Shown here: positions 22,639-55,584 of the stretch, piece by piece
Layout: every line of letters begins with the position of its first letter
How positions within the stretch are numbered: position 1 is the stretch's first letter
DNA from: Parcubacteria group bacterium
GTDB taxonomy: Bacteria; Patescibacteriota; Minisyncoccia; Moranbacterales; UBA11712
Direction: 5' to 3'
NCBI GenBank assembly: GCA_041659065.1
Contig: JBAZYY010000001.1
Span: 60,847-124,846 of the forward strand
DNA length: 64,000 nt
The notes under the pieces: model-generated
The model's database searches: none
Told to the model about the DNA's origin: nothing
Seen by the model: only the letters and a program-made list of their open reading frames with translations
Program-made: the position numbers and the translations under genes

Positions 22639-22777
22639 TTTCGATTTATAATGAGTTCTTTAGCTCATATTGTCAAGCGGAAACTCCCGTCATTTTACTC
22701 GATTTTTTTCGGCATTTATGCTATAGTTAGGTCTGTAATTGTAAGAGCCTTTAAATAGCTTAAATAAGGCATAAATT

Positions 22778-24867: not shown

Positions 24868-24879
24868 AATTTAAGCGAT

Positions 24880-26745
24880 ATGATTTTTGATATCCTAAAA
24901 CTAATTGTAGTTTTTCCGATTATCTTGGTGCTGCCAGGCATATTTTTTATGCTCGCGGCTTTTGGAAGATCGAATGCGAAAATCTCATTTTTTGAAAGAG
25001 CGGTATTGACGGTACCCTTCAGTATAATAATCATCGATTTGATTTGCTTCATTTTGAACCGCTTTGACATTCCGATTAAAGGCGTTATTCTCCTGGGATC
25101 GATTATCATTTTTTGCTTAATCGGGTTTATTGCTTATCAGTATCGATTTAAGTCCCGAGGAGAAAAAAATAAGGAAGCTGATTTGCAGCCGGATAATCTT
25201 TTTAATTTTTCGAATTGGCAGACAATTTTTATCCTGCTTTCAATTTTTGTGGCCGTTTTCATCCGCGTAGCTTATCTCTCGGATACGATAGTTCCTTCCG
25301 CCACGGATCTTGGACATCATATGTACTGGTCGCAAACGATTATCGACAGCGGAAAATTACCGGTCTACGGAATGCCCGACTTTATTATCGGCGAACATAT
25401 TATTTTTGCGGCAGTTAATCTTCTGTCCGGAGTCGGCCTCATGACAGCTATGCCCACGCTCCTGTTGCTTTTTGTGAATATTGCCGGTATTTTCACGCTT
25501 GTGATTCTGGCCGCCAGATTATTTAAAAATAAAAATATTACCGCAGTGATGTTTCTTGTCGCGGGGGTTTTGTATGCCATAAACGCTCCGCAAGGAAAAT
25601 ATGTAAGCGGTGGAGTCGTTGGGAATATAATCGGCGACATGCTGATTCCGGTCGTTCTTTATTTTCTCTATCGAGCGCTGGCCGAGAAGGACAGCTTTTT
25701 TGGCGGGCTTTTTCTTTTCAGTCTTATAGGTATTCTCTACACGCACCACTTGAGTTCGTTTATTTTATTATTTTCGATAGCCGGAATAATATTTTTCTAT
25801 CTGGCGGTCAATTTTCGCGGAATTTTCAATATTATCCTTGCCTGGATCAAAATATTCGCGCGCCCTTTTCCCATCGCAGTCCTACTGATCGCGCTAATTT
25901 TCTTCATTTTTGTATTTATGCCGTCGTACTTCAACCCGTCCGCCGTCAGCCAAGCTACCGGAGCGCCCACAAAAATAACCAGAGTAGGCTTAAATCTAAA
26001 TCAAATTGAGATGAACGCCGGCAGTGGGCGCCTGATCCTGGGAGCTTTAGGAATGCTTTTGATAGCAGTACTTGCCTGGAAACCAAAAAAATATTGGATA
26101 TCCTTCGCGGCGGGCTGGGTGATAATAAGCCTGGTTATGGCCTATAAACCCAATTTGCTCCTTATAAATATTCCGAGCGACCGAGTTGGAAATTATCTTT
26201 TTCTTCCCTTTTCTATTCTTTCGGCTTACGCGTTGGTGAAATATTTTGAACTGTTCAGAAAATCAGCCTCAAAATTTTTTGCTTCAGTTCTGTTATACGC
26301 GCTGATGTTTTTCATCATCACCAACGGACTTTCGGACAGCGCGGATGCCTTCAAGTCAAAGAACCAATTCCAGGAAATCATGGAAACATATCACTCGGCG
26401 GAATTCTTATCAAAGAACGTCGATACCTCAAAAGATATTATACTCAAAGATCACATAAATATCGCCGGAGACTCTTTCTACAAACTTTTTTTCATGAAAG
26501 ATTACAAATATCCGCTAAGCCGAGGTAATCTTTCGCGCTATGTCGATCCAACAAAACCGCGCGAAATCTGCACGCGCGACATCATTGATGATCCTGAAAA
26601 TGACACCGGAAAAGCGTGTCTATCCGACACGGGAGTTGATTATGTCGTTCTTAACGCTCAGCTGGAGGGCATGAGTTTCGAGAAGTATCCAAGCTTCTCA
26701 AAAGTTTACGCGTCGAATTATATCTCGGTTTTTAAGAAAAATTAA
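24880..26745 (+). CDS. Large polytopic membrane protein (putative GT-C-type / YfhO-like glycosyltransferase), unknown specificity
   Basis: About 14 TM helices plus a ~150 aa C-terminal soluble domain; shares an architecture and a C-terminal motif with the truncated first ORF. Confidence 0.5.
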   Translation: MIFDILKLIVVFPIILVLPGIFFMLAAFGRSNAKISFFERAVLTVPFSIIIIDLICFILNRFDIPIKGVILLGSIIIFCLIGFIAYQYRFKSRGEKNKEADLQPDNLFNFSNWQTIFILLSIFVAVFIRVAYLSDTIVPSATDLGHHMYWSQTIIDSGKLPVYGMPDFIIGEHIIFAAVNLLSGVGLMTAMPTLLLLFVNIAGIFTLVILAARLFKNKNITAVMFLVAGVLYAINAPQGKYVSGGVVGNIIGDMLIPVVLYFLYRALAEKDSFFGGLFLFSLIGILYTHHLSSFILLFSIAGIIFFYLAVNFRGIFNIILAWIKIFARPFPIAVLLIALIFFIFVFMPSYFNPSAVSQATGAPTKITRVGLNLNQIEMNAGSGRLILGALGMLLIAVLAWKPKKYWISFAAGWVIISLVMAYKPNLLLINIPSDRVGNYLFLPFSILSAYALVKYFELFRKSASKFFASVLLYALMFFIITNGLSDSADAFKSKNQFQEIMETYHSAEFLSKNVDTSKDIILKDHINIAGDSFYKLFFMKDYKYPLSRGNLSRYVDPTKPREICTRDIIDDPENDTGKACLSDTGVDYVVLNAQLEGMSFEKYPSFSKVYASNYISVFKKN

Positions 26746-26750
26746 CCTGT

Positions 26751-27149
26751 ATGCAAAGCAAAATAATCATTATCGCAACCATTATACTTTTTATCGCGGG
26801 TATCGCGGTCCTCTTCATGATTGAATCGCTGAATCATAACTATGACTATGGCAAAAGCTGGAGTGTAGTTTATTTCAGCAAGCCCTCTGATAATTCTGCG
26901 GATTTTACGATTGAGAATCATCAGGGAGCGGATGAAAATTACAAGTATAGTTATCAGATAAACGGAGAAGCAGTCAGTACCGGGGAAACTGAAGTGCCGG
27001 CTGGAGGCAAAGTCACCGTCGCGCCACCTCAGGAATACGAAATGAAATTGCAGGAAGCAAGGGAATCAGTCAGCGCGCCAAATGTCATTGTCGATGTAAT
27101 ACTGGACAGTTCCGAATATAAGATTAACAAGGTAATTCGTAATCAGTAA
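26751..27149 (+). CDS. Membrane-anchored hypothetical protein
   Basis: N-terminal TM helix plus a ~100 aa extracytoplasmic domain; begins 5 nt after the GT-C-like gene. Confidence 0.45.
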   Translation: MQSKIIIIATIILFIAGIAVLFMIESLNHNYDYGKSWSVVYFSKPSDNSADFTIENHQGADENYKYSYQINGEAVSTGETEVPAGGKVTVAPPQEYEMKLQEARESVSAPNVIVDVILDSSEYKINKVIRNQ

Positions 27150-27213
27150 TTGGTAATTTGGATATAAAATGTCCGAATTACAAACTTTAAATTGCCAATT
27201 ACAGGATTTTTTG

Positions 27214-28331
27214 TGAAAATTCTTTTGCTGACTCGCCCGATTTGTCCGCCCTGGGACGAAGGGTCGAAAAACTTCGCTTTTACTTTAGCAAATAACGTAC
27301 ATAACGCGGAAATCCACATTCTGACCTGTGGGGCTTTGGAAAATCTGCCTAAAAATGTCATCCAGCATCCCATATACTCATCCCCCAAGCTGAATCTAGC
27401 GCAAAAAATAAAATTATTTTGGTTTCTCAAAAAGATGGATGGCTTTGACATTATTCATTCGCTCTTCACGCCCACTAAGATAAATTCTTTTTTTATCAAG
27501 CGCGCTATTAAAACCAAGAACTCAAAAATAATCCAAACGGTTGCCACTTTGCGCGAAGATTTATACAAGGAGGATGATTTCAAAAAAATACTCTTTGGCG
27601 ATTTAATTATTACCTATTCCGATTATGCCCGTGAAAAAATTGAAAAAACCGGAATTAGCGATGTTCGCCGCGTTTATCCGGGAATTGATGTGAGCAAGTA
27701 TAGCCCTCAAGAGAAGAGTGCCGTATTAATGGAAAAATATGGAATTACTAGCCAAGACTTCGTTATAAATTTCACGGGAGAATATACTCGTTTGGGCGCC
27801 ATAGAGGATGTGATCAGCTGTTTTTTGGATCTCGCGGATGAAAATAGCAGTTTCAAACTGCAGCTGGCTTGCCGGATAAAGAATGAAAAGGACGCACGGA
27901 AAAAAGAAGAGGTGAAAAAGCGATTGGAAATTGCAGGGATATTAGATAGAGTGCTCTTTTTCGACGATCAAAAATTTGAGATGCCAGATGTTTATAATCT
28001 TTCGGATGTTTCGATCTTTCCGGTAAGGACTATGGATGGAAAATTTGATATTCCCCTGGCAGTGATCGAAGCTATGGCCTGTGAAAAACCGATGATCGCG
28101 AGTAGTTTGGAGCGGTTGAAATATTTTTTGAACGACAGCAATTGTATATTGATTAAACCGGGCGATCGGGAAGCGCTCAAGGAAAAAATTTTACACTTAT
28201 ACAAGAATCCGGAAGTTCGAAACGAACTTGGCGGAAAAGGCATGAGGTTCGTCCGGGAAAATTTTGATATAATGAAGATAGTCGGAGAATACGAAAAAAT
28301 TTACTTGGAAATTGGTGGCAGTAAACATTAA
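27214..28331 (+). CDS. Family 4 glycosyltransferase (GT-B)
   Basis: C-terminal motif FPVRTMDGKFDIPLAVIEAMACEKPMIAS. Start uncertain: GTG at 27214 or ATG at 27192. Confidence 0.75.
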
Positions 28332-28360
28332 GAGTCACATGTATTATCACGCTACTAAGC

Positions 28361-29911
28361 ATGATAATATATGCATTATCTACAAAAATGAGTGAGTACG
28401 TACTGAAAAAAGTCGGCGAGCACAAAAGGATAATCGAACCGGTTGGCAATATGAAAGTGCCTGTAGTCTTCCCTGTTTCGGATGTTTTGATGCCCGGCAC
28501 GGCTACGATTGAGGAATTAGCCAATGTCGCTTGCGACCCGCATGTTTTCCATCATGTTGCTGCGCTCTCGGACACGCATTCCAAAAAAGGCCGCAAAAAT
28601 CCCACCGGCTCAGCGGTAGCGACCAGAAGATTTTTTCTTCCTCAGGCAATGGATACGGCGCCAAATTGTGGTATGCGGCTTATCAGTACTCCTTTTGGAG
28701 AGAATGATTTGGACGGTAAGGCAGTTAACAAGCTTTTTGAAGAGCTTATTAAAGTAATTCCTACAGCAGTATATGTTGGAACCCGAGTGGACATTGATAC
28801 TGTGGTGGACGTCTGCCGTCGCGGAACGAAGGCAATTCTCGAAAAACTGAAAATTGATTCGAGTGAATACGAATATATTTTTAACGGTGGGAACTTTTTC
28901 AATGAAATTCCCAGCGAAAAAGATATACTCGACTCGATCCCAAGGACTTTTTTGCGGATTGCTCAATTGCGACTGGGAATTTTAGGCGCCGCCGGAAACC
29001 ATTTTTTGGATTTAATGAAAGTCGCTGATATTTTAGATGAAGATGTTGCAAACAAGCTGGGCATCAAAAAGGGCCAGTATCTATTTTTGATGCATACTGG
29101 ATCAGGAATGCTCGGTCAATATGCTTCATATTTTTATACTCCCAAGGAAAAAGAGCATCGCAGCCAAAAGATTGTCCTTGAAATGGGGCGGAGAGGTTTT
29201 TTGAAAAAAAATAACCCCGTTCATGAACAACTAAGGCGTGAAATTCCAGCCTGGAGGAACAAGCAAGAGTTTTACTCGATCGACAGCGAGTCTGAATTGG
29301 GGAGAATGTATATGACTGCCCATCGAGCCAGCGCAAACCACGGTTTTGCCAACCGCTCGATTCTGACTGAGCATATTCGTTTAACCGTGAAAAAAGTTTT
29401 TGGAAAAGATTTCGAGCTGCCGCTCATTTATGACATGCCGCATGTCCATGTGCAAGAGGAAACCCATTACGGGGAGAAAGTCCTGGTGCATCGTAATGGC
29501 GCTAGTCGCGCGAATGGCCCCGAACGAATGCGAAAATTACTTGACGGAGGATCAGCCTTCGTCAATCCGTTGCATGCCGAAACAGGTGAGCCAATTTTCA
29601 TTCCGTCTTCGATGGCGACTCCTTTTTATTTTGGCGTCGGTACCGACGAAAATGATGCGACCTTCTTTTCGGCCAGCCATGGTACCGGAAAAGCGAAAGA
29701 AAAGCAAGGCGTCGTTCCGAAAAATCGCGAAGAGCTGATGGAGAAGATGAAAAAAAGCAAAGTAAAGCTTTTTAACGCGAAATCTCGGCAGATTATCGAT
29801 CAGGACAGTTCGCATTATAAAGACGTGGAAGAAGTAATCGCCGGAATGACCGAAAATAAAATAATTAAAGTCGTGGCAAAAATGGATCCGATAGCGGTTT
29901 TGATGGCCTAA
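28361..29911 (+). CDS. rtcB: RtcB-family RNA 3'-phosphate ligase (divergent)
   Basis: RtcB signature motifs present: NCGMR, AGNHF, HTGSGMLG, VHRNGASRA and SASHGTGK (the His that is guanylylated in RtcB). Confidence 0.7.
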   Translation: MIIYALSTKMSEYVLKKVGEHKRIIEPVGNMKVPVVFPVSDVLMPGTATIEELANVACDPHVFHHVAALSDTHSKKGRKNPTGSAVATRRFFLPQAMDTAPNCGMRLISTPFGENDLDGKAVNKLFEELIKVIPTAVYVGTRVDIDTVVDVCRRGTKAILEKLKIDSSEYEYIFNGGNFFNEIPSEKDILDSIPRTFLRIAQLRLGILGAAGNHFLDLMKVADILDEDVANKLGIKKGQYLFLMHTGSGMLGQYASYFYTPKEKEHRSQKIVLEMGRRGFLKKNNPVHEQLRREIPAWRNKQEFYSIDSESELGRMYMTAHRASANHGFANRSILTEHIRLTVKKVFGKDFELPLIYDMPHVHVQEETHYGEKVLVHRNGASRANGPERMRKLLDGGSAFVNPLHAETGEPIFIPSSMATPFYFGVGTDENDATFFSASHGTGKAKEKQGVVPKNREELMEKMKKSKVKLFNAKSRQIIDQDSSHYKDVEEVIAGMTENKIIKVVAKMDPIAVLMA

Positions 29912-29913
29912 AT

Positions 29914-30483
29914 ATGAAAATTATTACCATTTCCGGGCTGGATGGTTCGGGAAAATCAACTCAAATCGAGTTTCTAAAAAAATATCTTGAATCACAAGGC
30001 AAGTCTTTTTATTATTTTCACGCAGTTCAGTTTTCGATATTTAATAGAATATTAAATAAGAAAAAAAGAAATAGTGGAGTCGAAAAAAGCGCGACACAGG
30101 CTAATTGGTTTCAAATTCAACTTCGGAAAATCTCATTACTTGTTGATATTTGCAGATTTAAAAAATTAGTTAAGAAAATAGATGCAGATTACATCATCAG
30201 TGACCGGTATTTTTATGACAGCGTCGTGAATATAAATTTTCTTTCGCGGAATAATAAAACGCTATTCGCGGAGAAATTTATTCCACGGCCCGACTTAGCG
30301 ATTTATCTCAAAGTGAACCCTGAAAAAATTATGCAAAGGGAAAGAAAGCCGGATCAAGGGCTTGAATATCTTATAAAAAAACAAGAGTTATATGAAGATA
30401 AATCAAAGTATTGGGATATAATGGTTATTGATGGAGAGGCAGCTAAAGAAGAAATATTCAAGGTCTTAAAATCCAAAATATAA
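29914..30483 (+). CDS. Thymidylate-kinase-like P-loop nucleotide kinase
   Basis: ISGLDGSGKSTQ P-loop and a DRYFYDSVV (DRY) motif; 189 aa. Confidence 0.6.
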   Translation: MKIITISGLDGSGKSTQIEFLKKYLESQGKSFYYFHAVQFSIFNRILNKKKRNSGVEKSATQANWFQIQLRKISLLVDICRFKKLVKKIDADYIISDRYFYDSVVNINFLSRNNKTLFAEKFIPRPDLAIYLKVNPEKIMQRERKPDQGLEYLIKKQELYEDKSKYWDIMVIDGEAAKEEIFKVLKSKI

Positions 30484-30581
30484 AACTCAAAGTTCAAATC
30501 AAGTCTGAATGACTAAGTCTAAATATTTGAATTTTTTATTTTAGATTTGATTTGATATTTGGATTTTTTAATTAGAAATTT

Positions 30582-32084
30582 ATGAGTCGATTTTTGGTAA
30601 AATCATTTTTTTGGGTGACGCTTTCAGAGATTATCTATAATCTCTCGGCTTATGTTATCCATGCCGTGATGGGGCGGGTTCTGGGTCCTTCTGATTACGG
30701 CCGATATGGGATCGTTATCACGCTGACTACAATGATCGTTGTGCTTATTGGACAGGGTGTTCCTACCGCAATGTCAAAATACCTTAGCGAGATTTTCGAA
30801 ACGCAGCAAGGCTTAATTCCGGTCATTAAGAAACAAACTGCTCGGATTCAAATTATCTTAATAGGAGTAGTGACAGTTATCTTTTTTCTCTTGACCCCTT
30901 TGATAGCCCGTGTTCTTGGTGATTCTACGCTAACTCCCCTTTTCCAAATATCGACTTTAGTCATTCCAGCCTTTGCGCTTGCGTCATTTTATTTTTATTA
31001 TTACACCGGACTCCATCTTTTCAATAAACAGGCTATTCTTAAGACTTCCCGGTCTTTCGCGAGAATAATTTTCATTCTAGGGTTTGCTTGGCTTTTGAAA
31101 TCACGAGGTATGGCTCTTCAGGGAGCGATTATCGGTTATATTCTGGCTCCCCTTTCGATTTTTTTCGAGGCCAATTTTTTCGATCCCTACAAAAAAATTA
31201 AAGCAGGAGGCTTTTTTGATTGGCGAAAGCTTGTGAAATATGCCTGGCCAATGACGCTTTTTCTGATTGCCTACGAATTTATGATAACTATCGACCTGTA
31301 TTTAGTTAAAGGTCTTCTAAAAAGTGATTATCTGACTGGAATCTATAATGGAGCGATTACGGTCGGCAGAATCCCCTATTTCCTTTTTTATGCTTTAACG
31401 ATAATTATCCTGCCGGCGGTTTCCAAATCGACTTCTAGCAATAATGACAAAGAGACTAAAACACTTGTTAGCGAATCATTACGGCTAATGGTCATGTTTC
31501 TTGTCCCTTTGTCAATTCTGATGTCAGTATTTTCTCCTTCAATAATAAGGGTTTTCTATTCGGCAAAATATTTGGATGCCGCTTTGCCGATGTCAATCCT
31601 GATGAGCGGGGTGACCTTTCTCACGGTTTTCTACTTTTTGGCCTTTGCGCTGAATGGCGCGGGAAAAGTAAAAATTCCAATGGTTATCTCGTTTGTCGGT
31701 TTGGCGCTTAATGTAATATTCAGTTTTATTTTTATAAAAAAATACGCCCTCATGGGCGCGGCTCTGGCAACATCAGTGACTTCCTTTATTACCATGCTTT
31801 TGGCGTTAATATACACGTATCGATATTTCGGCTATTTATTCGAAATGAAGAGGTTTATAAAAATAATCTTGGCATCCGCTGTTATGTATTTTGCGGCCCT
31901 GCTATTTCCACAGGGGAAATTAACATTTATTCTCTGGTCGGCTATCCTGATCCTCTTTTATGTATTCCTTCTTTACGCAATGAAAGAACTGGGGTCTTCT
32001 GATGTTCAAATAATAAGGCAGCTGATTAAAAGAAAAAATAAGAATAAAGTAGAATTTGAAAAGGAAGAAATCGAAGAAAGATAG
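30582..32084 (+). CDS. Wzx-type polysaccharide/oligosaccharide flippase (MOP superfamily)
   Basis: 500 aa with ~14 TM helices and a flippase-like hydrophobicity pattern; lies in a glycan locus. Confidence 0.7.
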   Translation: MSRFLVKSFFWVTLSEIIYNLSAYVIHAVMGRVLGPSDYGRYGIVITLTTMIVVLIGQGVPTAMSKYLSEIFETQQGLIPVIKKQTARIQIILIGVVTVIFFLLTPLIARVLGDSTLTPLFQISTLVIPAFALASFYFYYYTGLHLFNKQAILKTSRSFARIIFILGFAWLLKSRGMALQGAIIGYILAPLSIFFEANFFDPYKKIKAGGFFDWRKLVKYAWPMTLFLIAYEFMITIDLYLVKGLLKSDYLTGIYNGAITVGRIPYFLFYALTIIILPAVSKSTSSNNDKETKTLVSESLRLMVMFLVPLSILMSVFSPSIIRVFYSAKYLDAALPMSILMSGVTFLTVFYFLAFALNGAGKVKIPMVISFVGLALNVIFSFIFIKKYALMGAALATSVTSFITMLLALIYTYRYFGYLFEMKRFIKIILASAVMYFAALLFPQGKLTFILWSAILILFYVFLLYAMKELGSSDVQIIRQLIKRKNKNKVEFEKEEIEER

Positions 32085-36689: not shown

Positions 36690-37721
36690 ATGAAGGAATC
36701 AATTCTTTATGAAAAACTGAAAAAAGAGCTTATAAGATGCAAAACCTGCAGCCATTATTGCGTTATCGCGCCAAAAAAGAGGGGGATTTGCGGAGTGAGA
36801 GAAAATATTAATGGAAAATTATTTTTTTTGCCTTACGGGCGGGTTATCGCGAAAAGCATTGATCCGATCGAAAAAAAACCGCTTTTTCATTTTTTGCCGG
36901 GAAGCCTCTCTTTTTCTATCAGCACTGTTGGCTGCAATCTGCGTTGCGCGAATTGTCAGAATTGGACAATTTCCCAGTTCGGGAAATTGCCCGGTGTTAC
37001 CCGGGAAATGATTGAAAAAAGCGGTGAGGAGTTGCCGCCCAAAGAAATAATCAAGCTGGCTAAAGAAAATAATTGCCCAAGCATTTCCTATACTTACACC
37101 GAACCCACAATATTTCTTGAATATGCGCTTGAGACAATGAAGCTGGCAAAAAAAGCCGGTCTCAAAAATGTATGGGTGTCTAATGGATTCATGAGCAAGG
37201 AAACATTTCAGCTGATTACTCCCTATTTGGATGCCATAAACATAGATATCAAGTCCTTTGACGACAAATTTTATCAAGAAAACTGCGGAGCAAGGCTCGC
37301 GCCGGTACTAGAGAATTGCAAACGCGCGGTGAAAAATAAAATTTGGCTTGAAACGACAACCTTGGTTATTCCGACGCTTTCCGACGACGAAAAAATGCTG
37401 CGAAAAATCGCAGAGTTTATAAAGACAGAATTAGGCGATTTCGTCCCTTGGCATGTCAGCGCTTTTTCCGGTGCAATTTCTTGGAAGCTGCAGCACCTTT
37501 CCGAGACAACTGTCGAAAAGATCAAGCAAGCTTACGAAATTGGAAAATCAACCGGCCTCAAGTATGTTTACGCGGGCAATATTCCCGGTTCGGACATGGA
37601 AAACACTTATTGCTCCAAGTGCGGAGAAAGAATGATTAAAAGAATTGGCTACGATGTCAAGAGGCTCGATAAAGAAGGAAAGTGCGGCAAGTGTGGGGGA
37701 AAATTAAATCTTGTAGAATAA
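36690..37721 (+). CDS. AmmeMemoRadiSam-system radical SAM enzyme (PflA-like)
   Basis: Radical SAM CNLRCANCQNW (CxxxCxxC); an N-terminal CxxC...C cluster; a C-terminal CSKCG...CGKCGG zinc ribbon; ~340 aa. Lies upstream of the Memo-like and AMMECR1 genes. Confidence 0.7.
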   Translation: MKESILYEKLKKELIRCKTCSHYCVIAPKKRGICGVRENINGKLFFLPYGRVIAKSIDPIEKKPLFHFLPGSLSFSISTVGCNLRCANCQNWTISQFGKLPGVTREMIEKSGEELPPKEIIKLAKENNCPSISYTYTEPTIFLEYALETMKLAKKAGLKNVWVSNGFMSKETFQLITPYLDAINIDIKSFDDKFYQENCGARLAPVLENCKRAVKNKIWLETTTLVIPTLSDDEKMLRKIAEFIKTELGDFVPWHVSAFSGAISWKLQHLSETTVEKIKQAYEIGKSTGLKYVYAGNIPGSDMENTYCSKCGERMIKRIGYDVKRLDKEGKCGKCGGKLNLVE

Positions 37722-37887: not shown

Positions 37888-38685
37888 ATGATTAGGTTTG
37901 CCGCTATAACCCCTCATCCCCCCATAGCTATTCCAACAATCGGAAAGAACGATTTAAACTTGTGCCGAAAGACAGTTAATGCCATGAAGCAACTGGGAGA
38001 AAAATTCCGTGCCGTAAAAGCAGAAACTATTGTTCTTATCTCCCCGCATGGCCCGGTTCAATATGACAAATTCCTCTTTAATTATACGCCGGTTCTCCGC
38101 GGCGATCTGTCTCAATTCGGGGATACTAGGAAATTTTTATTCGAAAATGATCGCGGACTGGTGGATGAGGCCGTAAATAGCTTGAGAAATAACGGTCTTC
38201 CAGTTGGATTGGTTCGCGAGTTGGAACTTGACCATGGGGCGTTGGTGCCTCTTTTCTATCTTCTTAATGAAAAAGATGCCTCATATAACCCAAGGCTTGT
38301 CCATCTTTCGTATACGATGCTGCCTCTTGATTATCATCTGAAATTCGGGAGAGTTCTGGGGCAGGTGCTTCAAAGTTCGGAAAAAGTAATTTCGTTTATC
38401 GCAAGTGGCGATCTTTCGCACCGAGTGACCCAGGACGCACCAGCCGGATATTCTCCTCAGGGGCGAATTTTCGACAAAAATTTAATCAGCTTGATTCAAC
38501 GCAAAAACCTCAAGGGAATAATGGAATTGGATCCGGCATTTATAGAAGAAGCGGGAGAATGCGGATTGCGCTCGATAATCATGATGCTCTCGGGCATTTC
38601 AAATCTTCGCTGGGAAATAAAATCATTGAGTTACGAAGCACCTTTTGGAGTCGGGTATTTAGTTGCCAATATCAACATCAAATAG
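37888..38685 (+). CDS. Memo-like protein (AmmeMemoRadiSam system protein B; LigB-type extradiol-dioxygenase fold)
   Basis: Memo-like motifs: PHPP, LISPHGP, ASGDLSHR and CGLRSIIMML. A YgiD-like LigB-superfamily enzyme is the alternative assignment. Confidence 0.55.
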   Translation: MIRFAAITPHPPIAIPTIGKNDLNLCRKTVNAMKQLGEKFRAVKAETIVLISPHGPVQYDKFLFNYTPVLRGDLSQFGDTRKFLFENDRGLVDEAVNSLRNNGLPVGLVRELELDHGALVPLFYLLNEKDASYNPRLVHLSYTMLPLDYHLKFGRVLGQVLQSSEKVISFIASGDLSHRVTQDAPAGYSPQGRIFDKNLISLIQRKNLKGIMELDPAFIEEAGECGLRSIIMMLSGISNLRWEIKSLSYEAPFGVGYLVANINIK

Positions 38686-38729: not shown

Positions 38730-39269
38730 ATGGAGCGACATATTCAGCTGGCCAAGAAAGCTATTGAGAAATTTGTCAAAACCGGCAAAAAAATAGAGAT
38801 ACCTTCCGATCTCCCCCCGAATTTTTACGAGAAGGAATACGGAGTATTTGTCAGTCTCCACAGGGGAGATAAGTTGAGGGGCTGTATAGGAACCTATCTT
38901 CCCCAATATAGAAATTTAGCTGAAGAAATAATTCAAAATGCTATCGCGGCCTCGAGCGAAGATTACCGTTTTCCACCAGTTACTGCTGATGAAATTAACA
39001 ATCTGGAGATCAAAGTCAGCCTTCTAAACCAGCCCGAAAAAATTGGCAGTTTGGAAGATCTCGATGCAAAGAAATACGGCATAATTGTAAAATCAACGGA
39101 TGGCAAGTGCGGCCTGCTCCTGCCTGATCTTGAGGGAGTTGAAAGCGTGGAGCAGCAAATTTCGATCGCCTGCCAAAAGGCGGGTATAAATCTGAGTTTT
39201 GATAAAGATATTGAGATCTCTCGATTTGAAGTCACAAAATACCCGGGAGAAAATAATCAAGAAAGCTAA
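38730..39269 (+). CDS. AMMECR1-domain protein (AmmeMemoRadiSam system protein A)
   Basis: Hallmark LRGCIGT motif and a second Cys (DGKCGLLLP); 179 aa. Confidence 0.8.
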   Translation: MERHIQLAKKAIEKFVKTGKKIEIPSDLPPNFYEKEYGVFVSLHRGDKLRGCIGTYLPQYRNLAEEIIQNAIAASSEDYRFPPVTADEINNLEIKVSLLNQPEKIGSLEDLDAKKYGIIVKSTDGKCGLLLPDLEGVESVEQQISIACQKAGINLSFDKDIEISRFEVTKYPGENNQES

Positions 39270-39272
39270 TTA

Positions 39273-41216
39273 ATGCGAGATAAACGCTACATAATACAAG
39301 TCATTCCACTCATTCGCCTGCCGCTCATGCGGACGCAGGCTTTTTCGTATTACAATCCGGAGATTCTGCCGGCAGGTTCGCTGGTAAAGGTTTCATTTTT
39401 TCGCCAAAACGTACTGGGAATCGTAGTCGGCATCAGAGATGATTTTGAGCATAAGGGTACGATCAGAATAAAAAACATTGGAGAAGTGATTGAAAAATCT
39501 TTTCTTACGGAAAAGCAGCTGGCGCTTGCTAACTATGTAGCGGAAAAATATATTTGCCCGCCTGGCATCGTCCTCAAGGGAATGATTCCAAGCCAGTTTA
39601 AAATGAGGGCTAAAAAAGGAAGCGCCCAGACATTGAAGGGCAAAAATATAATTACTAAAAGCGCGATAGCGGAAAAAATTTCAAAAGACAAGTCGAAATA
39701 TTTTGTACTGGATGGGAGCGGGACGGAAAGAGAAGCGGTAAACTTGGCGCTCATAGGTGAATTAGTAAAAACAAAAAAGCAATGTCTGATTCTTGTTCCG
39801 GAAATATATTTTTCCCATGGCATTTACGAAAAAATTAAAACAAATTTTCCCGAGCAGGAGATCGCGCTGTTTCACAGCAAAATGGCCAAAGGAAAGCAGA
39901 ATGAGTGGCGGGAAAAAGTGAAGGAGGGAAAATTAAAAGTAATTATTGCTTCGCGGGCGGGAATTTTTCTTCCCTTTAAATCTTTGGGTCTCGTCATTGT
40001 GCGGGAACCGCAGGAAGCATCCTTTAAACAGTGGGATACAGCGCCGCGGTATAACGCAGCCGATAGTGCTCGTTTTCTGGCTGATCAATATGGCGCAAAA
40101 TTGATATTCGAAAGCTTCATGCCGTCCGTTAAACTATTTAAAAAAATCGAAGACCGGGAATACATGCGGATCAGCTGCAGTCAAACTGGAAAAGAAAAAC
40201 GCAAAATTGAAATTGTGGACATGTACCCGGAAAAGAAATCGGCTGATTTACCGATCTCAAAAAATCTTTATTCGGGGCTTGCCAAAAGCATAGAGGATAA
40301 AAAGCAAGCCTTGCTGCTCGTAAATCGCCGGGGTTTTTCAACTTTTTCGATTTGTCAAAGCTGCAAAAAGGTACTTAGTTGCCCGAAATGTGATAAGGCA
40401 CTTGTGTATTTTGACGAAAAATCACAATATGTCTGCCTCCACTGTGGGTATAAGCGAGATCTCCTGAGCTCCTGTCCAAGTTGTGGCGGATTTCAGTTCT
40501 CGCATTATGGAGTGGGATCTCAAACCGTCGAAAAGAAATTAAAAAAGCTGTTTCCCTTTATTAAAATTGGAAGGCTCGATTCCGACACGATAAAAAGCCA
40601 AAGCCGCCTAAAAAAACTTTATGCCGATCTTTTTGGGAAAAAAATAGATATTCTTACCGGTACGCAGATAGCGCTGGAAAGCATGGAGTCCGGCAGTTTC
40701 AGCTTAGTGGGAATTATTTCCGCCTATGACTTTTTTGGGAAGCCGGATTACAATTCCAGAGAAACAGCGTTCTTTAATCTTGGCCGAGCTCGCGAACTCG
40801 TAGGAAGCCAAGGAGTCCTGATTATTCAAGCTCCATCCCTGAATGACCCGCTTTTCAAATATCTGGAAAGCGGGAAATCCGAAGATTTTTTGAAAGACGA
40901 ATTAAAATTAAGGAAAAAGTACGCCTATCCTCCCTACTCTCAAATTATTAAACTGAGCTACGCCGATCATTTGCAAAAAAAAGCGGAAAGCGAATCTGCG
41001 CGTGTGTTTGACTTGCTGAATGTTAAAAGCCATAATAATATAAGGATTGAGGACCCGTTTGCGCCGTATCTCGCGAAAAAAAGGGGGAAATTTACAATAA
41101 ATATACTGATAAAGATATCAGGCAAGGAAGTTATCGCCGACACGCCTATTTACGCAATTATGAGTTCGCTCGGGAAAGGCTGGAAAATCGACGTGGATCC
41201 CATTTCAACCGTTTAA
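39273..41216 (+). CDS. priA: PriA-like primosomal protein N' with degenerate ATPase motifs
   Basis: PriA-like N-terminal 3'-DNA-binding region and a 4-Cys zinc-binding insert (CQSCKK...CPKCD...CLHCG...CPSCGG). Walker A reads GSGTERE, with no Lys where GSGKTEV is expected. The DEEH box is replaced by REPQ. Confidence 0.65.
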   Translation: MRDKRYIIQVIPLIRLPLMRTQAFSYYNPEILPAGSLVKVSFFRQNVLGIVVGIRDDFEHKGTIRIKNIGEVIEKSFLTEKQLALANYVAEKYICPPGIVLKGMIPSQFKMRAKKGSAQTLKGKNIITKSAIAEKISKDKSKYFVLDGSGTEREAVNLALIGELVKTKKQCLILVPEIYFSHGIYEKIKTNFPEQEIALFHSKMAKGKQNEWREKVKEGKLKVIIASRAGIFLPFKSLGLVIVREPQEASFKQWDTAPRYNAADSARFLADQYGAKLIFESFMPSVKLFKKIEDREYMRISCSQTGKEKRKIEIVDMYPEKKSADLPISKNLYSGLAKSIEDKKQALLLVNRRGFSTFSICQSCKKVLSCPKCDKALVYFDEKSQYVCLHCGYKRDLLSSCPSCGGFQFSHYGVGSQTVEKKLKKLFPFIKIGRLDSDTIKSQSRLKKLYADLFGKKIDILTGTQIALESMESGSFSLVGIISAYDFFGKPDYNSRETAFFNLGRARELVGSQGVLIIQAPSLNDPLFKYLESGKSEDFLKDELKLRKKYAYPPYSQIIKLSYADHLQKKAESESARVFDLLNVKSHNNIRIEDPFAPYLAKKRGKFTINILIKISGKEVIADTPIYAIMSSLGKGWKIDVDPISTV

Positions 41217-41228: not shown

Positions 41229-41699
41229 ATGGACAACAACGAAACGTTGAATATAATAAAATACCCGGATGGCTTTTTAAGAAATAAGACTCATGCGGTC
41301 AAGGATTTTAGCGATCCCAAGCTTGAACTGCTGATCAAGGGCATGGTAAAAGCGATGGAAGTTAACAAAGGCATAGGGCTCGCTGCTCCTCAAGTCGGAT
41401 CCAGTCTTAAAATTTTCATTTGTAGAGTCGATAATGAACTTTATGCCCTGATTAATCCCGAGATCAAATCCTTTTCAAAGAAAAAAGAATTTTACGAAGA
41501 GGGCTGTTTGAGTTTTCCCGGAAAATATTTCCAGATTGAACGGCCCATAAAAGTCAAAGTCAAAGCGTACGATCTTAAAGGGAAAAAAATCAGGATTAAA
41601 GCCGATGGCCTCTTGGCGAGAGTTATTCAGCATGAGATTGACCATCTGGACGGAGTTTTGATAATCGACCGGGTAAAATCGGATAAGAAAGATAAATAG
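41229..41699 (+). CDS. def: Peptide deformylase
   Basis: Motifs GIGLAAPQVG, EGCLSFPG and HEIDHLDG. Confidence 0.9.
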   Translation: MDNNETLNIIKYPDGFLRNKTHAVKDFSDPKLELLIKGMVKAMEVNKGIGLAAPQVGSSLKIFICRVDNELYALINPEIKSFSKKKEFYEEGCLSFPGKYFQIERPIKVKVKAYDLKGKKIRIKADGLLARVIQHEIDHLDGVLIIDRVKSDKKDK

Positions 41700-41716: not shown

Positions 41717-42682
41717 ATGACAAAAGATCAGCGCATAATTTTTTGGGGGTCGCCGGAATTTGCGGCGGATATTTTACATAAGCTGTTAAAAGAAAAATTT
41801 AATATTGTCGCAGTCGTCACCCAGCCGGACAAAAAAATCGGCCGGAAACAGGAAATTTCAGAGCCGCCAGTCAAATCAATCGCTTTGAAAAATAAAATAA
41901 ATATATTTCAGCCGGAAAATCTCAAAGAGGAAGAGTTTATAAGGCAAATCAAGCGACTTGAACCGGATTTGCTTCTCGTGGCCGCGTACGGAAAAATAAT
42001 TCCCAAAGATATTTTGGATATTCCCCGCCGAGGATCAATTAATGTCCATGCTTCGCTCCTCCCAAAATACAGGGGTGCTTCCCCTATTCAAAGCGCGATA
42101 ATCGCCGGAGATGAAAAAACCGGCGTGACTCTCATGCTTATGGACTCTGGACTCGATACGGGAGACATTATCGCCCAAAAAGAAATTAAAATAGGAAAAG
42201 ACGAAACTTCGGAGACTCTGACAAAAAAATTATCGGCGCTTGGAGGCGAGCTTCTTGTGAACTCTATCGGCTCTTGGCTTGAAGGCGGAATTAAAGCCAT
42301 TCCTCAGGATAGCGGCCAGGCCAGCTATTCTAAAATCATAAAAAGGCAAGATGGCGAGATAAATTGGGAAGAGCCGGCATTGGAAATTTATCAAAAGTAC
42401 AAGGCCTACTTTCCCTGGCCGGGCCTGCATACGCTTCTTGATGTCAAAGGTGAGTTAAAGCGCATCAAGTTGGTTGACATCTATCCCCTGAAAAGCCCTG
42501 GAGCTGGCGGAAAGGCGGGAAAAATCATAAAAGTGGAAGAAAAAATTGCCGTGCAGACCAGCGAAGGATTGCTAGCTATCAGAAAGGCGCAGATTGAAGG
42601 AAAAAGAGAAATGGCGGCTGAAGAAATTGCCAAGGGCTATCCGGAACTAATCGGTTCTGTTTTTCAAAACAATTTCAAATAA
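41717..42682 (+). CDS. fmt: Methionyl-tRNA formyltransferase
   Basis: N-terminal formyltransferase domain (INVHASLLPKYRGASPIQ) plus the C-terminal domain; 321 aa. Confidence 0.9.
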   Translation: MTKDQRIIFWGSPEFAADILHKLLKEKFNIVAVVTQPDKKIGRKQEISEPPVKSIALKNKINIFQPENLKEEEFIRQIKRLEPDLLLVAAYGKIIPKDILDIPRRGSINVHASLLPKYRGASPIQSAIIAGDEKTGVTLMLMDSGLDTGDIIAQKEIKIGKDETSETLTKKLSALGGELLVNSIGSWLEGGIKAIPQDSGQASYSKIIKRQDGEINWEEPALEIYQKYKAYFPWPGLHTLLDVKGELKRIKLVDIYPLKSPGAGGKAGKIIKVEEKIAVQTSEGLLAIRKAQIEGKREMAAEEIAKGYPELIGSVFQNNFK

Positions 42683-42697: not shown

Positions 42698-43519
42698 ATG
42701 GGCCAAAATAAAGATAATCAGAAAGCTTTTATCGCTGGATTCATTTTAATTTTACTGGTTATACTTTGGGTAATTCTAAAGCCTGCTATTAGTTCTTGGA
42801 AGGGGTCAAAGTCGCAAAATGCAGAAGATAAGATGGCAGAGGTTTTTTCGGCTGCGCCGACTATTTCCGCGAGCGACCTCTACAAAGAGCTTGAGCAAAA
42901 TTACGACCGATTCATTATCGATACGAGAAGCGCGATAGAATTTAAAAAAGGTCATATCGCGGCCTCGAAAAATCTGGATCGAGATTCTTTAAGCGTAAGT
43001 ACCTTAACTGCGCTTGGAGTAAAAAAAACAACTGAAATTATTTTAATTGATAATCCAGAAAACATCTACAAAACGGCCGGAAAAGTAACTGAGCTTTTAG
43101 GCTCCGGATTAGTGGAGGTGAAATATCTCGAGGGAGGTCTGGCGAGTTGGACAGAGCTGGGCTATGCGCTGGTTTCTTCAGGCGGATCCGATCTCGACAG
43201 TTCCAAAGTAAAAAAAATCAGTTTGGAACAATTAAAGAGCGATCTTGAGAGATCTTCGGATCTGGTGCAAATTATTGATATTAGGGAAAGTTCAGCTTAT
43301 AACCAAGGTCACCTAAAAGGCGCGGAAAATTTTCCGCTGGCTGATTTGGAAAAAGGGAAGAAAGACATTTCCTCCATTAAGGAAGTAGTTGTTTATGGCG
43401 GAAGCGAAGAAAGCTTTAACGCAGTGGTTGCTTTATTTGATCTTAACTTTTTCAACGTCTATCAACTGAACGGAAACTATGAAGATTGGAAAAACTCCGG
43501 GGGAAATATCGAAAACTAA
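42698..43519 (+). CDS. Membrane-anchored tandem rhodanese-like domain protein (catalytic Cys apparently absent)
   Basis: N-terminal TM helix and two rhodanese-like repeats (FIIDTRSAIEFKKGHI and IIDIRESSAYNQGHL); no Cys in either active-site loop position. Confidence 0.6.
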   Translation: MGQNKDNQKAFIAGFILILLVILWVILKPAISSWKGSKSQNAEDKMAEVFSAAPTISASDLYKELEQNYDRFIIDTRSAIEFKKGHIAASKNLDRDSLSVSTLTALGVKKTTEIILIDNPENIYKTAGKVTELLGSGLVEVKYLEGGLASWTELGYALVSSGGSDLDSSKVKKISLEQLKSDLERSSDLVQIIDIRESSAYNQGHLKGAENFPLADLEKGKKDISSIKEVVVYGGSEESFNAVVALFDLNFFNVYQLNGNYEDWKNSGGNIEN

Positions 43520-43546: not shown

Positions 43547-43577
43547 CAAAAAAAAGGAAGCCTGGCTTCCTTTTTTT
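43547..43577. terminator. Bidirectional rho-independent terminator (rhodanese / groES convergent)
   Basis: A8-GGAAGCC-t-GGCTTCC-T7. Confidence 0.75.
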
Positions 43578-48927: not shown

Positions 48928-50025
48928 TTATCTTTTTCGAGAATATGCCAATTGCTTACCGCGAAATTGCTTCTTTGCCGCAATATGCTTTGCCTTATCA
49001 CTCGTTTTATGTTTTATTCTTGCGATCTGGTCGGCTATCATTCGCTCGGCGTAATATTGTCTTTTGTCTCTCGCATTCTTTGGATCAAAATCTTTCCCTT
49101 TTTCTTTGAGGAGCCACTTTCTAATGAGCTTTTGCTCGTCTGGTGTGGCTAAAGTAGCGAATTCTTCTGGATAATTAATATATTGTTCACAGAGTATCGC
49201 CCAATATTCTGTCGTTATGAGATAATTTTTTTCATTGGGGTTAGGATTTCTAATTGCAGCAAGATAATTTCGAAAGACGCTTGTATTCGCAAGCTCGGAA
49301 GTCTGATAAGCGCGGCTCACTTCGACAAAAAAATCAATCCTTTGCTCCGGTGTCATAAAATTACTGAACGTCCCCTGATGCATATGCCCTATCTCGTGGC
49401 TTAATCTTAGAACAATTAACCTCGCATTATAACTAACTCCAAGCTCTTTCCCTTTATATTTTGCATTTTGGGGCGCTTTAAAAAAAATCAGATTGTCCTT
49501 GTTGAGACTTTCAACTCCTCCGACGACATAATCATTTTGCATCCCGTATTTGGGCTGAGCCTTATAAACCTTATTTTGAAATTTTACTTCTGCAACATTT
49601 TTGTTTATTGTTCCCGCAGGATAACATCCTTCTTCTTCGCTAAAAATTTTTGACAAAAATTTCTGGTCAACTCCAAGCTTTTCGAACCCAATTATTTTTG
49701 GGCGAGCTGGAATTTTTCCCTTGGCTTCGCGAGCCTGTTTGTCGGCAATCGATAATTGTTCAAATAAGTAATCCGAGTATAAATCATCGAGGTATTCAAT
49801 TTTTTCCCGATACTCCGGGTTATTTTTTAAAATTCTTTCTCTATATTTTTCAGCTGCCTGTGATTTGACTTGTTTTTTGGCTAGCGCCGCGTCACTTGTG
49901 CCCAAAGTCAAAATTCCGGCTGCCAATGCGACGTTAGCGAATTTTTTAAACAAATTTCTTTTTGCCACAGGATTATTTTCAGAATCCGAAACTTTTTTTA
50001 TTTTGGTAAAATTTTCAAGTCCCAT
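48928..50025 (-). CDS. Secreted HExxH-motif protein (putative zinc metallopeptidase), Lys-rich
   Basis: N-terminal signal/anchor (VALAAGILTLGTSDAALA), LSHEIGHMHQG motif and a basic C-terminus. Confidence 0.55.
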   Translation of the reverse strand: MGLENFTKIKKVSDSENNPVAKRNLFKKFANVALAAGILTLGTSDAALAKKQVKSQAAEKYRERILKNNPEYREKIEYLDDLYSDYLFEQLSIADKQAREAKGKIPARPKIIGFEKLGVDQKFLSKIFSEEEGCYPAGTINKNVAEVKFQNKVYKAQPKYGMQNDYVVGGVESLNKDNLIFFKAPQNAKYKGKELGVSYNARLIVLRLSHEIGHMHQGTFSNFMTPEQRIDFFVEVSRAYQTSELANTSVFRNYLAAIRNPNPNEKNYLITTEYWAILCEQYINYPEEFATLATPDEQKLIRKWLLKEKGKDFDPKNARDKRQYYAERMIADQIARIKHKTSDKAKHIAAKKQFRGKQLAYSRKR

Positions 50026-53703: not shown

Positions 53704-54474
53704 ATGGATAGAGTTGTGCTATTCCGTTATCACAAAAAACCGCTTATTTGTCGCAGCAGATTGCGGCTGATAAGAAAATTTAATCCGAGAATAAAGATTT
53801 TCGGACTTTATGGCGGGAAGGAATCGCAATTTCCAAAGTATCAAAAATATCTGGGATCATTTTTTGAGCATAATTACTGCATAAAAGGCAAATCAAATAA
53901 TTGGAAATGGAAAAACAGCGATCTGGCTATCAAGCTGTGGTATAAAAGTATTGGCAAAAAAATTGAATTTGATATGCTTCACGTTATTGAGTGGGATCTT
54001 TTGCTTTTCGATTCGTTGGATAAAATTTATAAAAAAATTCCTGAAAATAGCCTGGGCTTAACAGCTCTTACTCCATATAAAAACGTTGAAAATAAATGGT
54101 TCAAGCCATTTAGAGGTGAGTGGATAAAGCTATTGAAATACGCGCAGGATAAGTATAGCTATAACGGAAAACCCCAGGCCGCGCTGGGGCCAGGCTTTTG
54201 CCTCCCCAAAAAATTCTTGGAGAAGTATAGCGAAATTCAAGTTCCTGTATTATGTAACGATGAATTGCGCCTGGCGTTATTTGGTCAAATTTTTAAGCAT
54301 AAACTAATTAATACGGGCTTCTACCTAAAATGGTTTGATTTTGTTGGAGAGCTGCTTTTTAATTGCAGGGGGAAAGAAATTCCTTTGGCGTTAATTAGAA
54401 GAGAGCTTAAGAAAAAGGGCGGAAAAAGATCATTTCATCCTTTCCGAAAACGACTTAAAAAATCTATGCTATAG
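53704..54474 (+). CDS. Hypothetical protein, Lys-rich
   Basis: 256 aa ORF with no recognisable motif and no obvious RBS; lies in the tRNA-adjacent islet. Confidence 0.4.
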   Translation: MDRVVLFRYHKKPLICRSRLRLIRKFNPRIKIFGLYGGKESQFPKYQKYLGSFFEHNYCIKGKSNNWKWKNSDLAIKLWYKSIGKKIEFDMLHVIEWDLLLFDSLDKIYKKIPENSLGLTALTPYKNVENKWFKPFRGEWIKLLKYAQDKYSYNGKPQAALGPGFCLPKKFLEKYSEIQVPVLCNDELRLALFGQIFKHKLINTGFYLKWFDFVGELLFNCRGKEIPLALIRRELKKKGGKRSFHPFRKRLKKSML

Positions 54475-54774: not shown

Positions 54775-55584
54775 ATGGCAGCAAAGTCGTATGCTACTGG
54801 CTGGACCTCGGAATCCCCGACGCCCGCCCAGATGAAAGAGTTCATGGCACAAGCTGAAAGCGGTCGGATCACTAAAACCCGGATGCAAAATTTTCTTCGG
54901 GCAAACCATGACCAGATTCTGCTTTCCAGAACGACCGAGGCAGAAGCTCGGGCGAGCGAGATTTTAGATCGCCGCAATGTTATCACTGCCTATGAGGTCG
55001 CAGAGAGATGGGCAATGGAAATTGATCCCCCTACCCGGATTCCCTACACCGCAAAAACGTTGGAAAGGTGTGCCCGGGAAAATGACAGTAATGAGAACTG
55101 GTACCTGATTTATGTCATCGGACTTTCATTGCGTGAGCAATACAGCATCCGTGGACCTAATATTCCCGGCGGTCGGGGTGGGAGTTTTAGGGGCAAACCG
55201 CCTGATATCAGCGACGAATATCTAGAGCGTTCATTTCAATCTGGATACTACCTCTTAAACATCCGGTGCAATTTCACTAAAATGAGGTGGCAAGATCAGA
55301 CAAATGTTATAGGGGCCTGGGGTGAAAAATATAAGCGCGCAGACGAGCGCATGCTTAGCGAGGTTATGCTATCTCGCCTTATGGTGAAATATGTTCACTT
55401 CGCTGGCATTTATCCTGGATTCTATCACTGGGGATTTGGGATGATGCCCGAATGCAATGGTAAGAGGATGGGAAGAGTCACTCTATATCAGGAGGGCGGT
55501 AATATCTGCTTTTCCTCCCAGCATCCTGACCACTTTAGTTCCTCAAACTATGGCGTCGTCATGCTTCGTGAGCCCGATTTCTAA
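54775..55584 (+). CDS. Hypothetical protein encoded by a compositionally atypical (GC-rich) gene
   Basis: Strong GGAGGTG RBS 6 nt upstream. GC content is visibly ~10 points above neighbouring genes. Strong terminator downstream. No recognisable motif. Confidence 0.55.
   Translation: MAAKSYATGWTSESPTPAQMKEFMAQAESGRITKTRMQNFLRANHDQILLSRTTEAEARASEILDRRNVITAYEVAERWAMEIDPPTRIPYTAKTLERCARENDSNENWYLIYVIGLSLREQYSIRGPNIPGGRGGSFRGKPPDISDEYLERSFQSGYYLLNIRCNFTKMRWQDQTNVIGAWGEKYKRADERMLSEVMLSRLMVKYVHFAGIYPGFYHWGFGMMPECNGKRMGRVTLYQEGGNICFSSQHPDHFSSSNYGVVMLREPDF

Follow-up and report, generated by a model that had tools for sequence, protein, structure and literature searches.

A PriA orthologue with eroded ATP-site motifs, a predicted pseudohelicase, at the canonical priA locus of a Moranbacteria-like bacterium

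Domain architecture of the window PriA

The stretch analysed here, referred to as the window, comprises 64,000 nucleotides of contig JBAZYY010000001.1 from a Parcubacteria group bacterium. At 39273..41216 of its forward strand, between an AMMECR1 gene and the def-fmt pair, lies an open reading frame (ORF) with an ATG start and a product of 647 amino acids (aa), which we assign as a priA orthologue and predicted pseudohelicase from the family model TIGR00595, the PriA structures of the PDB and an AlphaFold model. The protein scores 329 bits with TIGR00595 (cutoff 230.35), residues 148-644 being covered; the narrower PRK05580 sub-models give 240-390 bits, every one under its cutoff (760-1250). 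In a phmmer search of the PDB, it is matched by the K. pneumoniae PriA 4NL4 and by E. coli PriA with E = 5e-52. The AlphaFold2 model, built from 60 homologues, has a predicted local distance difference test score (pLDDT) of 88.6 and a predicted template modelling score (pTM) of 0.88. Its nine best PDB matches in Foldseek are all PriA, the top one being the E. coli PriA 8FAK (TMq 0.85, E = 2e-48). Identity to E. coli PriA in the structural alignment is 23% for the window protein and 29% for an intact Moraniibacteriota control.

The order of parts is that of canonical PriA (4NL4, 6DGD, 8FAK), namely a 3'-DNA-binding domain (3'BD), RecA lobe 1, lobe 2 with an inserted two-zinc cysteine-rich region (CRR) and the domain at the C terminus (CTD). 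The fold (TM 0.85 against 8FAK) and the priA-def-fmt gene order are also shared, whereas the window protein lacks the winged-helix domain and the ATP-site motifs and is about 85 residues shorter. The 3'BD (residues 17-106; 39321..39590, forward strand, as are all parts of the protein given below) matches PF17764 at 54.1 bits, with a cutoff of 22.7, and keeps the pocket residues Y26, G35 and K67. An earlier note on this DNA had claimed that this N-terminal region is kept, which the profile match and the conserved pocket bear out. The CTD (residues 554-643; 40932..41201) matches PF18074 at 27.0 bits, with a cutoff of 26.9, and its residues E543, R547, P553, P554, D640 and P643 are conserved. The zinc-ribbon profile PF18319 reaches 24.0 bits over residues 370-395, slightly below its 26-bit cutoff. 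The two Pfam helicase profiles, DEAD (14.8 bits, cutoff 26) and Helicase_C (21 bits), both remain sub-cutoff.

Between the 3'BD and lobe 1, no winged-helix domain was found in the window protein. Its position is occupied by a short disordered linker (residues 107-135; 39591..39677), modelled with low confidence (pLDDT <50 for residues 110-122) and with no fold predicted. Since the intact relative P0300, used here as a control, likewise has a mere linker instead of this domain, the winged helix is not family-defining in this lineage and its absence predates the motif loss. The idea that winged-helix loss forms part of the motor degeneration was rejected, because intact relatives too have only the linker. 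A similar architecture is known from an E. coli PriA minus its winged-helix domain (6DCR; TMq 0.68 to the window model), but there the domain was deleted by engineering, from a helicase that is active, whereas the absence in the window lineage is natural. We also considered that the protein could be locked in an activated state, as its model is closer to the fork-bound, CRR-pivoted 8FAK (TMq 0.85) than to apo or ADP-bound structures (0.65-0.69). This idea was dropped: the model of the intact P0300 shows the same conformational preference (0.81 for 8FAK versus about 0.70), which is thus uninformative on degeneration.

Loss of the ATP-site motifs and retention of the DNA-binding parts

Motif columns were located by HMMER alignment to 4NL4 and by four independent MAFFT alignments, and they were followed through the close relatives of the window protein that share its motif decay (hereafter, the clade). 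The strings that the earlier note had quoted, G148-S-G-T-E-R-E-A-V, R244-E-P-Q and S281-F-M, are all present, and HMMER and MAFFT place them in the columns of motifs I, II and III. In the Walker A remnant D147-G-S-G-T-E-R-E-A155 (39711..39737), as aligned by HMMER to 4NL4 and by MAFFT, the canonical GxTGSGKTEVY is replaced by DG-SGTEREAV (147-156). The P-loop is one residue shorter, Arg153 stands at the position of the Walker lysine and Glu154 at that of the threonine. The lysine is therefore absent in either register, as had been noted, but the register proposed earlier, GSG on GSG with Thr151 in place of the lysine, is not the one that the profiles give; these align Arg153 after a one-residue deletion. 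Arg occupies this column in 45 of 47 clade members.

The other motifs are similarly affected. The Q-motif position, residue 129 (39657..39659), is Lys; it is Gln in 100% of the intact PriAs compared, and its entropy in the clade is 2.9 bits. Motif II (Walker B) is reduced to R244-E-P-Q (40002..40013) instead of DEEH or DEEQ, as indicated by HMMER, MAFFT and column statistics. In the alignments, motif III reads S281-F-M (40113..40121) instead of SAT, GSATP having become ESFMP (280-284). Of motif V (40659..40688), the G463-T-Q half is kept but the KGxD half is lost (E469-S-M-E472), so that the canonical GTQ..KGxDF appears as GTQIALESMES. Motif VI is left as R505-A-R-E-L-V-G-S512 (40785..40808), where NLGRARELVGS replaces the canonical QVxGRxGR and the Gln, the Gly and the arginine-finger residues are gone. 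Thus, the decay noted earlier in motifs I, II and III is real, but its extent was understated, since the Q-motif Gln, motif V (KGxDF to ESMES) and motif VI (QxxGRxxR to RARELVGS) have been lost too. No shifted Walker A or Walker B was found elsewhere in the 647-aa protein.

To score these losses column by column, positions conserved at >=80% in 93 intact PriAs were examined in the clade. With the letters of the intact PriAs, the lost columns are Q129; G147, S151, G152, K153, T154 and E155; D244, E245 and E246; A282 and T283; G470 and D472; Q505, G508, R509 and R512; and the three motif Ia positions L180, Q183 and R187. Entropy at the ATP-site columns amounts to 2.01 bits in the clade, for a protein mean of 1.42, versus 0.19 bits in 89 intact relatives. 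The only new identities fixed there are Arg153 (45/47) and Leu509 (41/47), and some clade members keep DEEQ or EEEQ as motif II. From this pattern, the window protein is predicted to be unable to bind or hydrolyse ATP in the manner of superfamily II (SF2) helicases.

The same test shows which parts have been retained. Kept at 86-100% in the clade are the 3'BD pocket residues Y26, G35, V38, K67, Y93 and P106; E177, H201, W213, F232 and P234; K252, Q253, P258 and Y260 of the aromatic-rich loop; N351, R352 and G354 of the NRRG motif, whose R353 stands at 71%; all eight cysteines; G413, G415, the GTQ of 463-465 and Q519; and the CTD residues. At these core columns, entropy is 0.05 bits in the clade and 0.12 bits in intact relatives. 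At the 3'BD residues, conservation is as strong as among intact PriAs. Y26, G35 and K67, the counterparts of E. coli Y18, G37 and K61 in the alignment, are 91-100% conserved; at the position of E. coli Asp17, the window protein has Ser, and many intact PriAs from outside the proteobacteria have Thr or Ser. The aromatic-rich loop (motif IIa), S250-F-K-Q-W-D-T-A-P-R-Y260 (40020..40052), is retained by column conservation: no variation is seen in the clade at S250, K252, Q253, P258 and R259, Y260 is conserved at >=90%, and K252, Q253, P258 and Y260 are conserved in intact PriAs as well. In E. coli PriA, this loop has the same placement, directly after motif II (PMC5175346). Motif IV, N351-R-R-G354 (40323..40334), is (nearly) invariant in degenerate and intact PriAs alike. 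The CRR (40353..40484) holds C361/364, C370/373, C388/391 and C401/404, that is, four CxxC pairs and two predicted zinc sites, with all eight cysteines invariant in alignments of 60 and of 47 sequences. The zinc-binding insert reported earlier is thus present, though with eight cysteines and not four. In total, 56 positions are invariant in the clade, among them all eight cysteines and the 3'BD pocket.

Locus, orthology and selection

Directly upstream of priA lies a trio of AmmeMemoRadiSam type, made of a radical SAM gene (36690-37721), a Memo/LigB gene (37888-38685) and the AMMECR1 gene (38730..39269, forward strand; PF01871), which ends 3 nt before the priA start. Downstream, and also on the forward strand, follow def for peptide deformylase (41229..41699; PF01327, E = 4e-51), fmt for methionyl-tRNA formyltransferase (41717..42682; PF00551, PF02911) and a rhodanese-domain gene (42698..43519; PF00581), the last one before a terminator-like hairpin. 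This hairpin, strong and perfect over 13 bp, lies at 43549-43577 between the convergent rhodanese and groES genes. It has runs of A and T on its flanks and resembles a bidirectional intrinsic terminator that would close a putative priA-def-fmt-rhodanese unit.

The arrangement is shared throughout the clade. In 18 of 18 clade loci, the degenerate gene sits in the order (radical SAM-Memo-AMMECR1)-priA-def-fmt-rhodanese-groES, with Memo or AMMECR1 immediately upstream of it in every case. A profile search also revealed PriAs labelled Moraniibacteriota or Moranbacteria whose motifs are intact (GPAGSGKTEVYI, DEEQD, GSATPS, KGWDL, GRVSRPG), and three intact PriAs, P0300, P0345 and P0330, lie in the same priA-def-fmt-rhodanese-groES block of different assemblies. 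Upstream of the intact sister genes are LigT and WecG, not Memo or AMMECR1. More distantly, def-fmt also follows intact PriAs in Saccharibacteria, Thermoactinomyces and Thermincola. Since the same block holds a dead gene in the clade and an intact gene in the sisters, the dead gene is the positional orthologue of intact priA. By this gene-order argument, the degenerate copy is an orthologue and not a spare paralogue, and the motor loss is placed within a Moranbacteria-like radiation. No second PriA was found within the 64-kb window.

The intact short PriAs of Moraniibacteriota and Parcubacteria (P0300, P0330, P0345) are 34-38% identical to the window protein and share its locus, its winged-helix-less architecture and its predicted fold, but they keep GPAGSGKTEVYI, DEEQD, GSATPS, KGWDL and GRxxRPG; they could serve as a natural active control. 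The region flanking their genes can also be recognized in the window. At 1623-9012, a block of LigT, WecG, an unassigned ORF, GluRS, a C39-like peptidase, NUDIX, NifU and an IscS-like aminotransferase corresponds to the priA-flanking block of the sister genomes L081 and L083, whose priA is intact, but here it is about 30 kb off and inverted. The displacement and inversion of this LigT-WecG...NifU-IscS block point to a rearrangement that broke at the 5' end of priA.

The degeneration is not peculiar to one genome. The same motif decay and the shortened P-loop are seen in about 50 protein clusters with identities of 42-49%, of which several bear a Moranbacteria or Moraniibacteriota label, and 18 species-representative metagenome-assembled genomes (MAGs) of Moranbacteria type (L001-L018) carry orthologues with the same decay; the earlier note had proposed to check whether relatives share it. 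The closest relative, P0003, is 77% identical to the window protein. Beyond the clade, the next-best loci are at <=29% identity and intact. A full-length ORF is kept in 17 of the 18 species-level relatives and in the approximately 50 protein clusters. In the L009 orthologue (JBAZXV010000001.1, 6001-7932), a lone in-frame TAA is found at codon 63 of an otherwise full-length conserved ORF; with a contig coverage of ~1.6x, this stop is due either to an error in a read or to inactivation in the very recent past. Four of the MAGs (L005, L007, L012, L017) are labelled 'Candidatus Bathyarchaeia archaeon' or 'uncultured Bdellovibrionales bacterium' and carry the Moranbacteria-type order Memo-priA-def-fmt-rhodanese(-groES), and these bins are likely mislabelled or contaminated.

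The degenerate priA is under purifying selection. By the Nei-Gojobori method, eight orthologue pairs within the clade give an overall ratio of nonsynonymous to synonymous substitution rates (dN/dS) of 0.10-0.18, and of 0.03-0.23 across the folded domains. The segment of lobe 2 and the CRR has the lowest values (0.03-0.12), the RecA lobes lie at 0.06-0.16 and the linker 107-135 at 0.2-0.4. The gene evolves faster than its neighbours, with an identity between species of 42-47% versus 60-89% for def, Memo and groES. When identity to canonical PriAs was compared between the clade and its intact sisters with the motif columns removed, the RecA lobes were more divergent in the clade (27.7 versus 33.9%, and 28.1 versus 35.5%), whereas no excess was seen in the 3'BD (26.9 versus 27.2%) or in the lobe-2/CRR segment (32.5 versus 33.3%). 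The extra divergence from canonical PriAs is thus confined to the RecA lobes. Taken with the purifying selection, this implies that the catalytic residues of the motor have been freed from constraint while the protein is still maintained, with its lobes kept as structural and DNA-binding units.

Putative pseudohelicases in Patescibacteria and other contents of the window

By descent and architecture the ORF product is a PriA, yet its sequence is not that of a PriA helicase. We consider it quite likely that this gene is the cell's orthologous PriA turned into a pseudohelicase, a binder of forks and related DNA structures without a motor. The protein is accordingly predicted to be catalytically inactive, to bind forks and to recruit the helicase. 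The earlier note had suggested a non-catalytic restart or scaffold role, or a pseudo-enzyme, and the motif loss, the dN/dS of 0.10-0.18 and the positional orthology together favour a pseudo-enzyme kept for fork binding or as a scaffold. In E. coli PriA, the 3'BD pocket reads the 3' end of the leading strand (PMC5778457), the aromatic-rich loop contacts lagging-strand DNA at the junction (PMC5175346), and the CRR, helicase lobe 2 and the CTD provide a pore for single-stranded DNA (ssDNA) and a partner-docking surface (PMC10175261). The pseudohelicase would bind abandoned forks or D-loops structure-specifically and, once bound, could act as a docking platform for the replicative helicase, directly or via a loader. 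It would not itself unwind the lagging-strand arm; in that case, restart would work only on substrates with lagging-strand ssDNA already exposed, or else depend on another helicase.

The helicase motifs of PriA are described as well conserved among bacteria, Deinococcus-Thermus being the notable exception (PMC4504706). The D. radiodurans PriA, with a K-to-R change in Walker A, lacks ATPase and helicase activity; it still shows near-normal affinity for ssDNA and forks and an interaction with DnaB, and it is interpreted as a restart protein that acts by binding DNA and DnaB, with no unwinding (PMC4504706). Of the traits of this Deinococcus-Thermus pseudohelicase, the Lys-to-Arg change, a deviant Walker B and the keeping of the gene by selection are all seen in the window protein. 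Both proteins have replaced the Walker lysine by Arg, have an aberrant Walker B and have kept the CRR and the remaining PriA architecture (PMC4504706). On the other hand, Deinococcus PriA is reported to match poorly at motifs I and II only (PMC4504706), while the window protein has lost Q, I, II, III, V and VI, has a shortened P-loop and is missing the winged-helix domain. Furthermore, Deinococcus PriA has been assayed biochemically, whereas the window protein is known from sequence and model. Given that sister Moraniibacteriota carry intact orthologues at this locus and that the nearest relatives are Patescibacteria PriAs, the window pseudohelicase would have arisen independently of the Deinococcus-Thermus PriA. 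Among the papers covered by a literature search on PriA of the Candidate Phyla Radiation/Patescibacteria, no report of helicase-motif loss was found.

A second comparison is offered by E. coli PriA K230R/A. These variants sustain PriA-PriB restart in vivo and permit the loading of DnaB in vitro, and they show that fork binding and primosome assembly remain within the reach of an ATPase-dead PriA (PMC5778457, PMC10175261). The Walker lysine is lost in K230R (priA300) and K230A as in the window clade, priA300 and the clade both having Arg. The E. coli changes, however, are single and engineered in an intact motor, whereas in the clade the whole site has been eroded naturally. Moreover, the E. 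coli restart route uses PriB, DnaT and DnaC, partners not known in the window lineage, and helicase activity is still needed there for the PriA-PriC route.

Several observations weigh against a motorless fork binder as the cell's PriA. None of DnaB, DnaC/DnaI, DciA, DnaD, PriB, PriC and DnaT occurs among the window ORFs scanned against Pfam. The motif Ia positions L180, Q183 and R187, conserved in intact PriAs, are also lost in the clade, which may weaken the DNA contacts of lobe 1. The clade-conserved Arg153 and Leu509 could hint at a pocket that is remodelled, not empty. Finally, the readable genome is limited to 64 kb, so that a second, intact PriA might lie elsewhere. This last point would allow the degenerate protein to be a specialised or regulatory extra copy, for instance a dominant fork-capping factor, working beside an intact PriA, and Moraniibacteriota-labelled MAGs with intact PriA do exist. 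We regard this explanation as unlikely, since the degenerate gene occupies the exact locus of the intact gene of sister genomes (priA-def-fmt-rhodanese-groES), the four intact-PriA assemblies that were looked up share no whole-genome shotgun (WGS) prefix with the 18 degenerate-PriA assemblies, and the window holds no other PriA. A contig scan that gave one locus per degenerate-clade assembly points the same way but is weak, its patterns having been tuned to the degenerate clade.

Retention of ATPase or translocase activity through non-canonical residues, with Arg153, for example, standing in for the Walker lysine, would be compatible with the fixation of this Arg in the clade, with the DEEQ or EEEQ of some members and with purifying selection on both RecA lobes. 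It seems very improbable, however, for a P-loop that is one residue shorter and has lost glycines and the Thr, in a protein where the Q-motif Gln, the Ala-Thr of motif III, the Gly and Asp of motif V and both arginines of motif VI are gone, the columns vary at ~2 bits, and DEAD and Helicase_C stay sub-cutoff. Besides, K230R alone abolishes the ATPase of E. coli PriA (PMC5778457), and the same change is found in the inactive D. radiodurans PriA (PMC4504706). Patescibacteria genomes being reduced, a decaying gene (a pseudogene, or a relic without function that is being lost) might likewise be suspected from the erased catalytic motifs, the stop codon of L009 and the fast evolution relative to def, Memo and groES. 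Such decay is hard to believe when 17 of 18 species-level relatives and ~50 protein clusters keep the full-length ORF, when dN/dS does not exceed 0.23 in any folded domain, and when the 56 clade-invariant positions include the eight cysteines and the 3'BD pocket; the L009 stop concerns one codon on a contig of ~1.6x coverage. As the source is a metagenome-assembled genome, an indel or a chimera could in principle have destroyed real motifs, and a sequencing indel that shifts the motifs was the case that the earlier note had named as refuting its reading. The chance of such an artefact is practically nil: each motif has in-frame homology to either side, a separately assembled Logan contig (SRR18595301) encodes the identical 647-aa protein, and the same lesions recur in ~50 relatives from many samples.

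If the pseudohelicase reading is right, the window clade would represent a second, independent lineage in which the PriA motor has been erased, far more thoroughly than in Deinococcus-Thermus, while the gene stays strongly selected at its canonical locus. It would support the view drawn from E. coli K230R genetics that PriA is indispensable for recognising forks by their structure and for loading the helicase, and not for unwinding. The sister genomes with an intact PriA in the same operon could then be used as natural matched controls to ask for which fork substrates the motor is needed and what takes its place in reduced genomes. In NCBI, the window protein is named 'MAG: primosomal protein N' [Parcubacteria group bacterium]', on a contig of 339 kb. 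The JGI/IMG annotation calls these proteins 'primosomal protein N' (superfamily II helicase)', and the term 'superfamily II helicase' would overstate their likely activity.

Motor loss was also surveyed beyond the clade. When 1.84 billion cluster representatives were searched exhaustively with HMMER, 16,655 hits were obtained. The best 150 of these, 50%-identity cluster representatives closest to the window protein, were taken together with reference sequences. Within this survey set, both the Walker A GK[TS] and motif VI are missing from 65 of 123 short PriAs (560-700 aa) versus 2 of 38 long ones, and the losses of motifs I and VI are strongly concordant. Neighbour-joining (NJ) trees were built with the motif columns masked and with 100 bootstraps; Deinococcus sequences were not included. 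The window's clade, with 14 representatives, has 100% bootstrap support. Degenerate PriAs are monophyletic in 0 of 100 bootstrap trees and make up at least six groups of more than one member, among which intact ones are interspersed, and Fitch parsimony on the NJ trees gives 15-23 state changes across bootstraps, although deep NJ nodes at ~30% identity are unreliable. The lesions also differ by group. The window clade shows the one-residue P-loop deletion with Arg, another group has a deletion of 3-4 residues and no Q-motif region, and others carry substitutions only. Two degenerate PriAs, P0141 and P0382, have the ancestral LigT-priA-def-fmt context and Parcubacteria-like gene contexts; P0382, labelled 'Patescibacteria group bacterium', is the only one of the other degenerate representatives with an organism label. 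The AMMECR1-priA adjacency is also found in a second degenerate lineage (P0238 clade, L090), and its sharing with the window clade might reflect common ancestry. Because of this possible sharing by descent and of the unreliable deep nodes, we speak of several independent losses and give no number. On balance, we lean towards PriA motor loss being recurrent in Patescibacteria, in short winged-helix-less PriAs. If so, restart in many ultra-small, probably episymbiotic, bacteria would routinely use a motorless PriA, and pairs of intact and dead orthologues at one locus would amount to a natural experiment on the purpose of PriA helicase activity.

In a further degenerate lineage (P0171), the locus L091 (3800-6175) has priA followed by a 119-aa ORF that matches only the C-terminal domain of the formyltransferase, and no def; an intein-containing inositol-1-phosphate synthase gene lies nearby.

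Elsewhere in the window, a PD-(D/E)XK nuclease of 383 aa (9258-10409; PF12705, E = 2e-32) stands alone, with no helicase domain attached to it. Besides priA, no other obvious gene of DNA repair or recombination was found among the window ORFs scanned against Pfam. No Pfam match at E <= 1e-3 or 1e-4 was obtained for five ORFs of 256-621 aa (29-1570, 24880-26745, 48928-50025, 53704-54474 and 54775-55584). A large cluster for cell-envelope glycans extends over 15533-32084, with several glycosyltransferases of the GT1, GT2 and GT4 families, a Wzy-type O-antigen ligase, LytR-CpsA-Psr and a flippase, and is interrupted by RtcB and a thymidylate-kinase-like gene. Over the flippase gene, at 30-32 kb, the GC content dips to 0.369.

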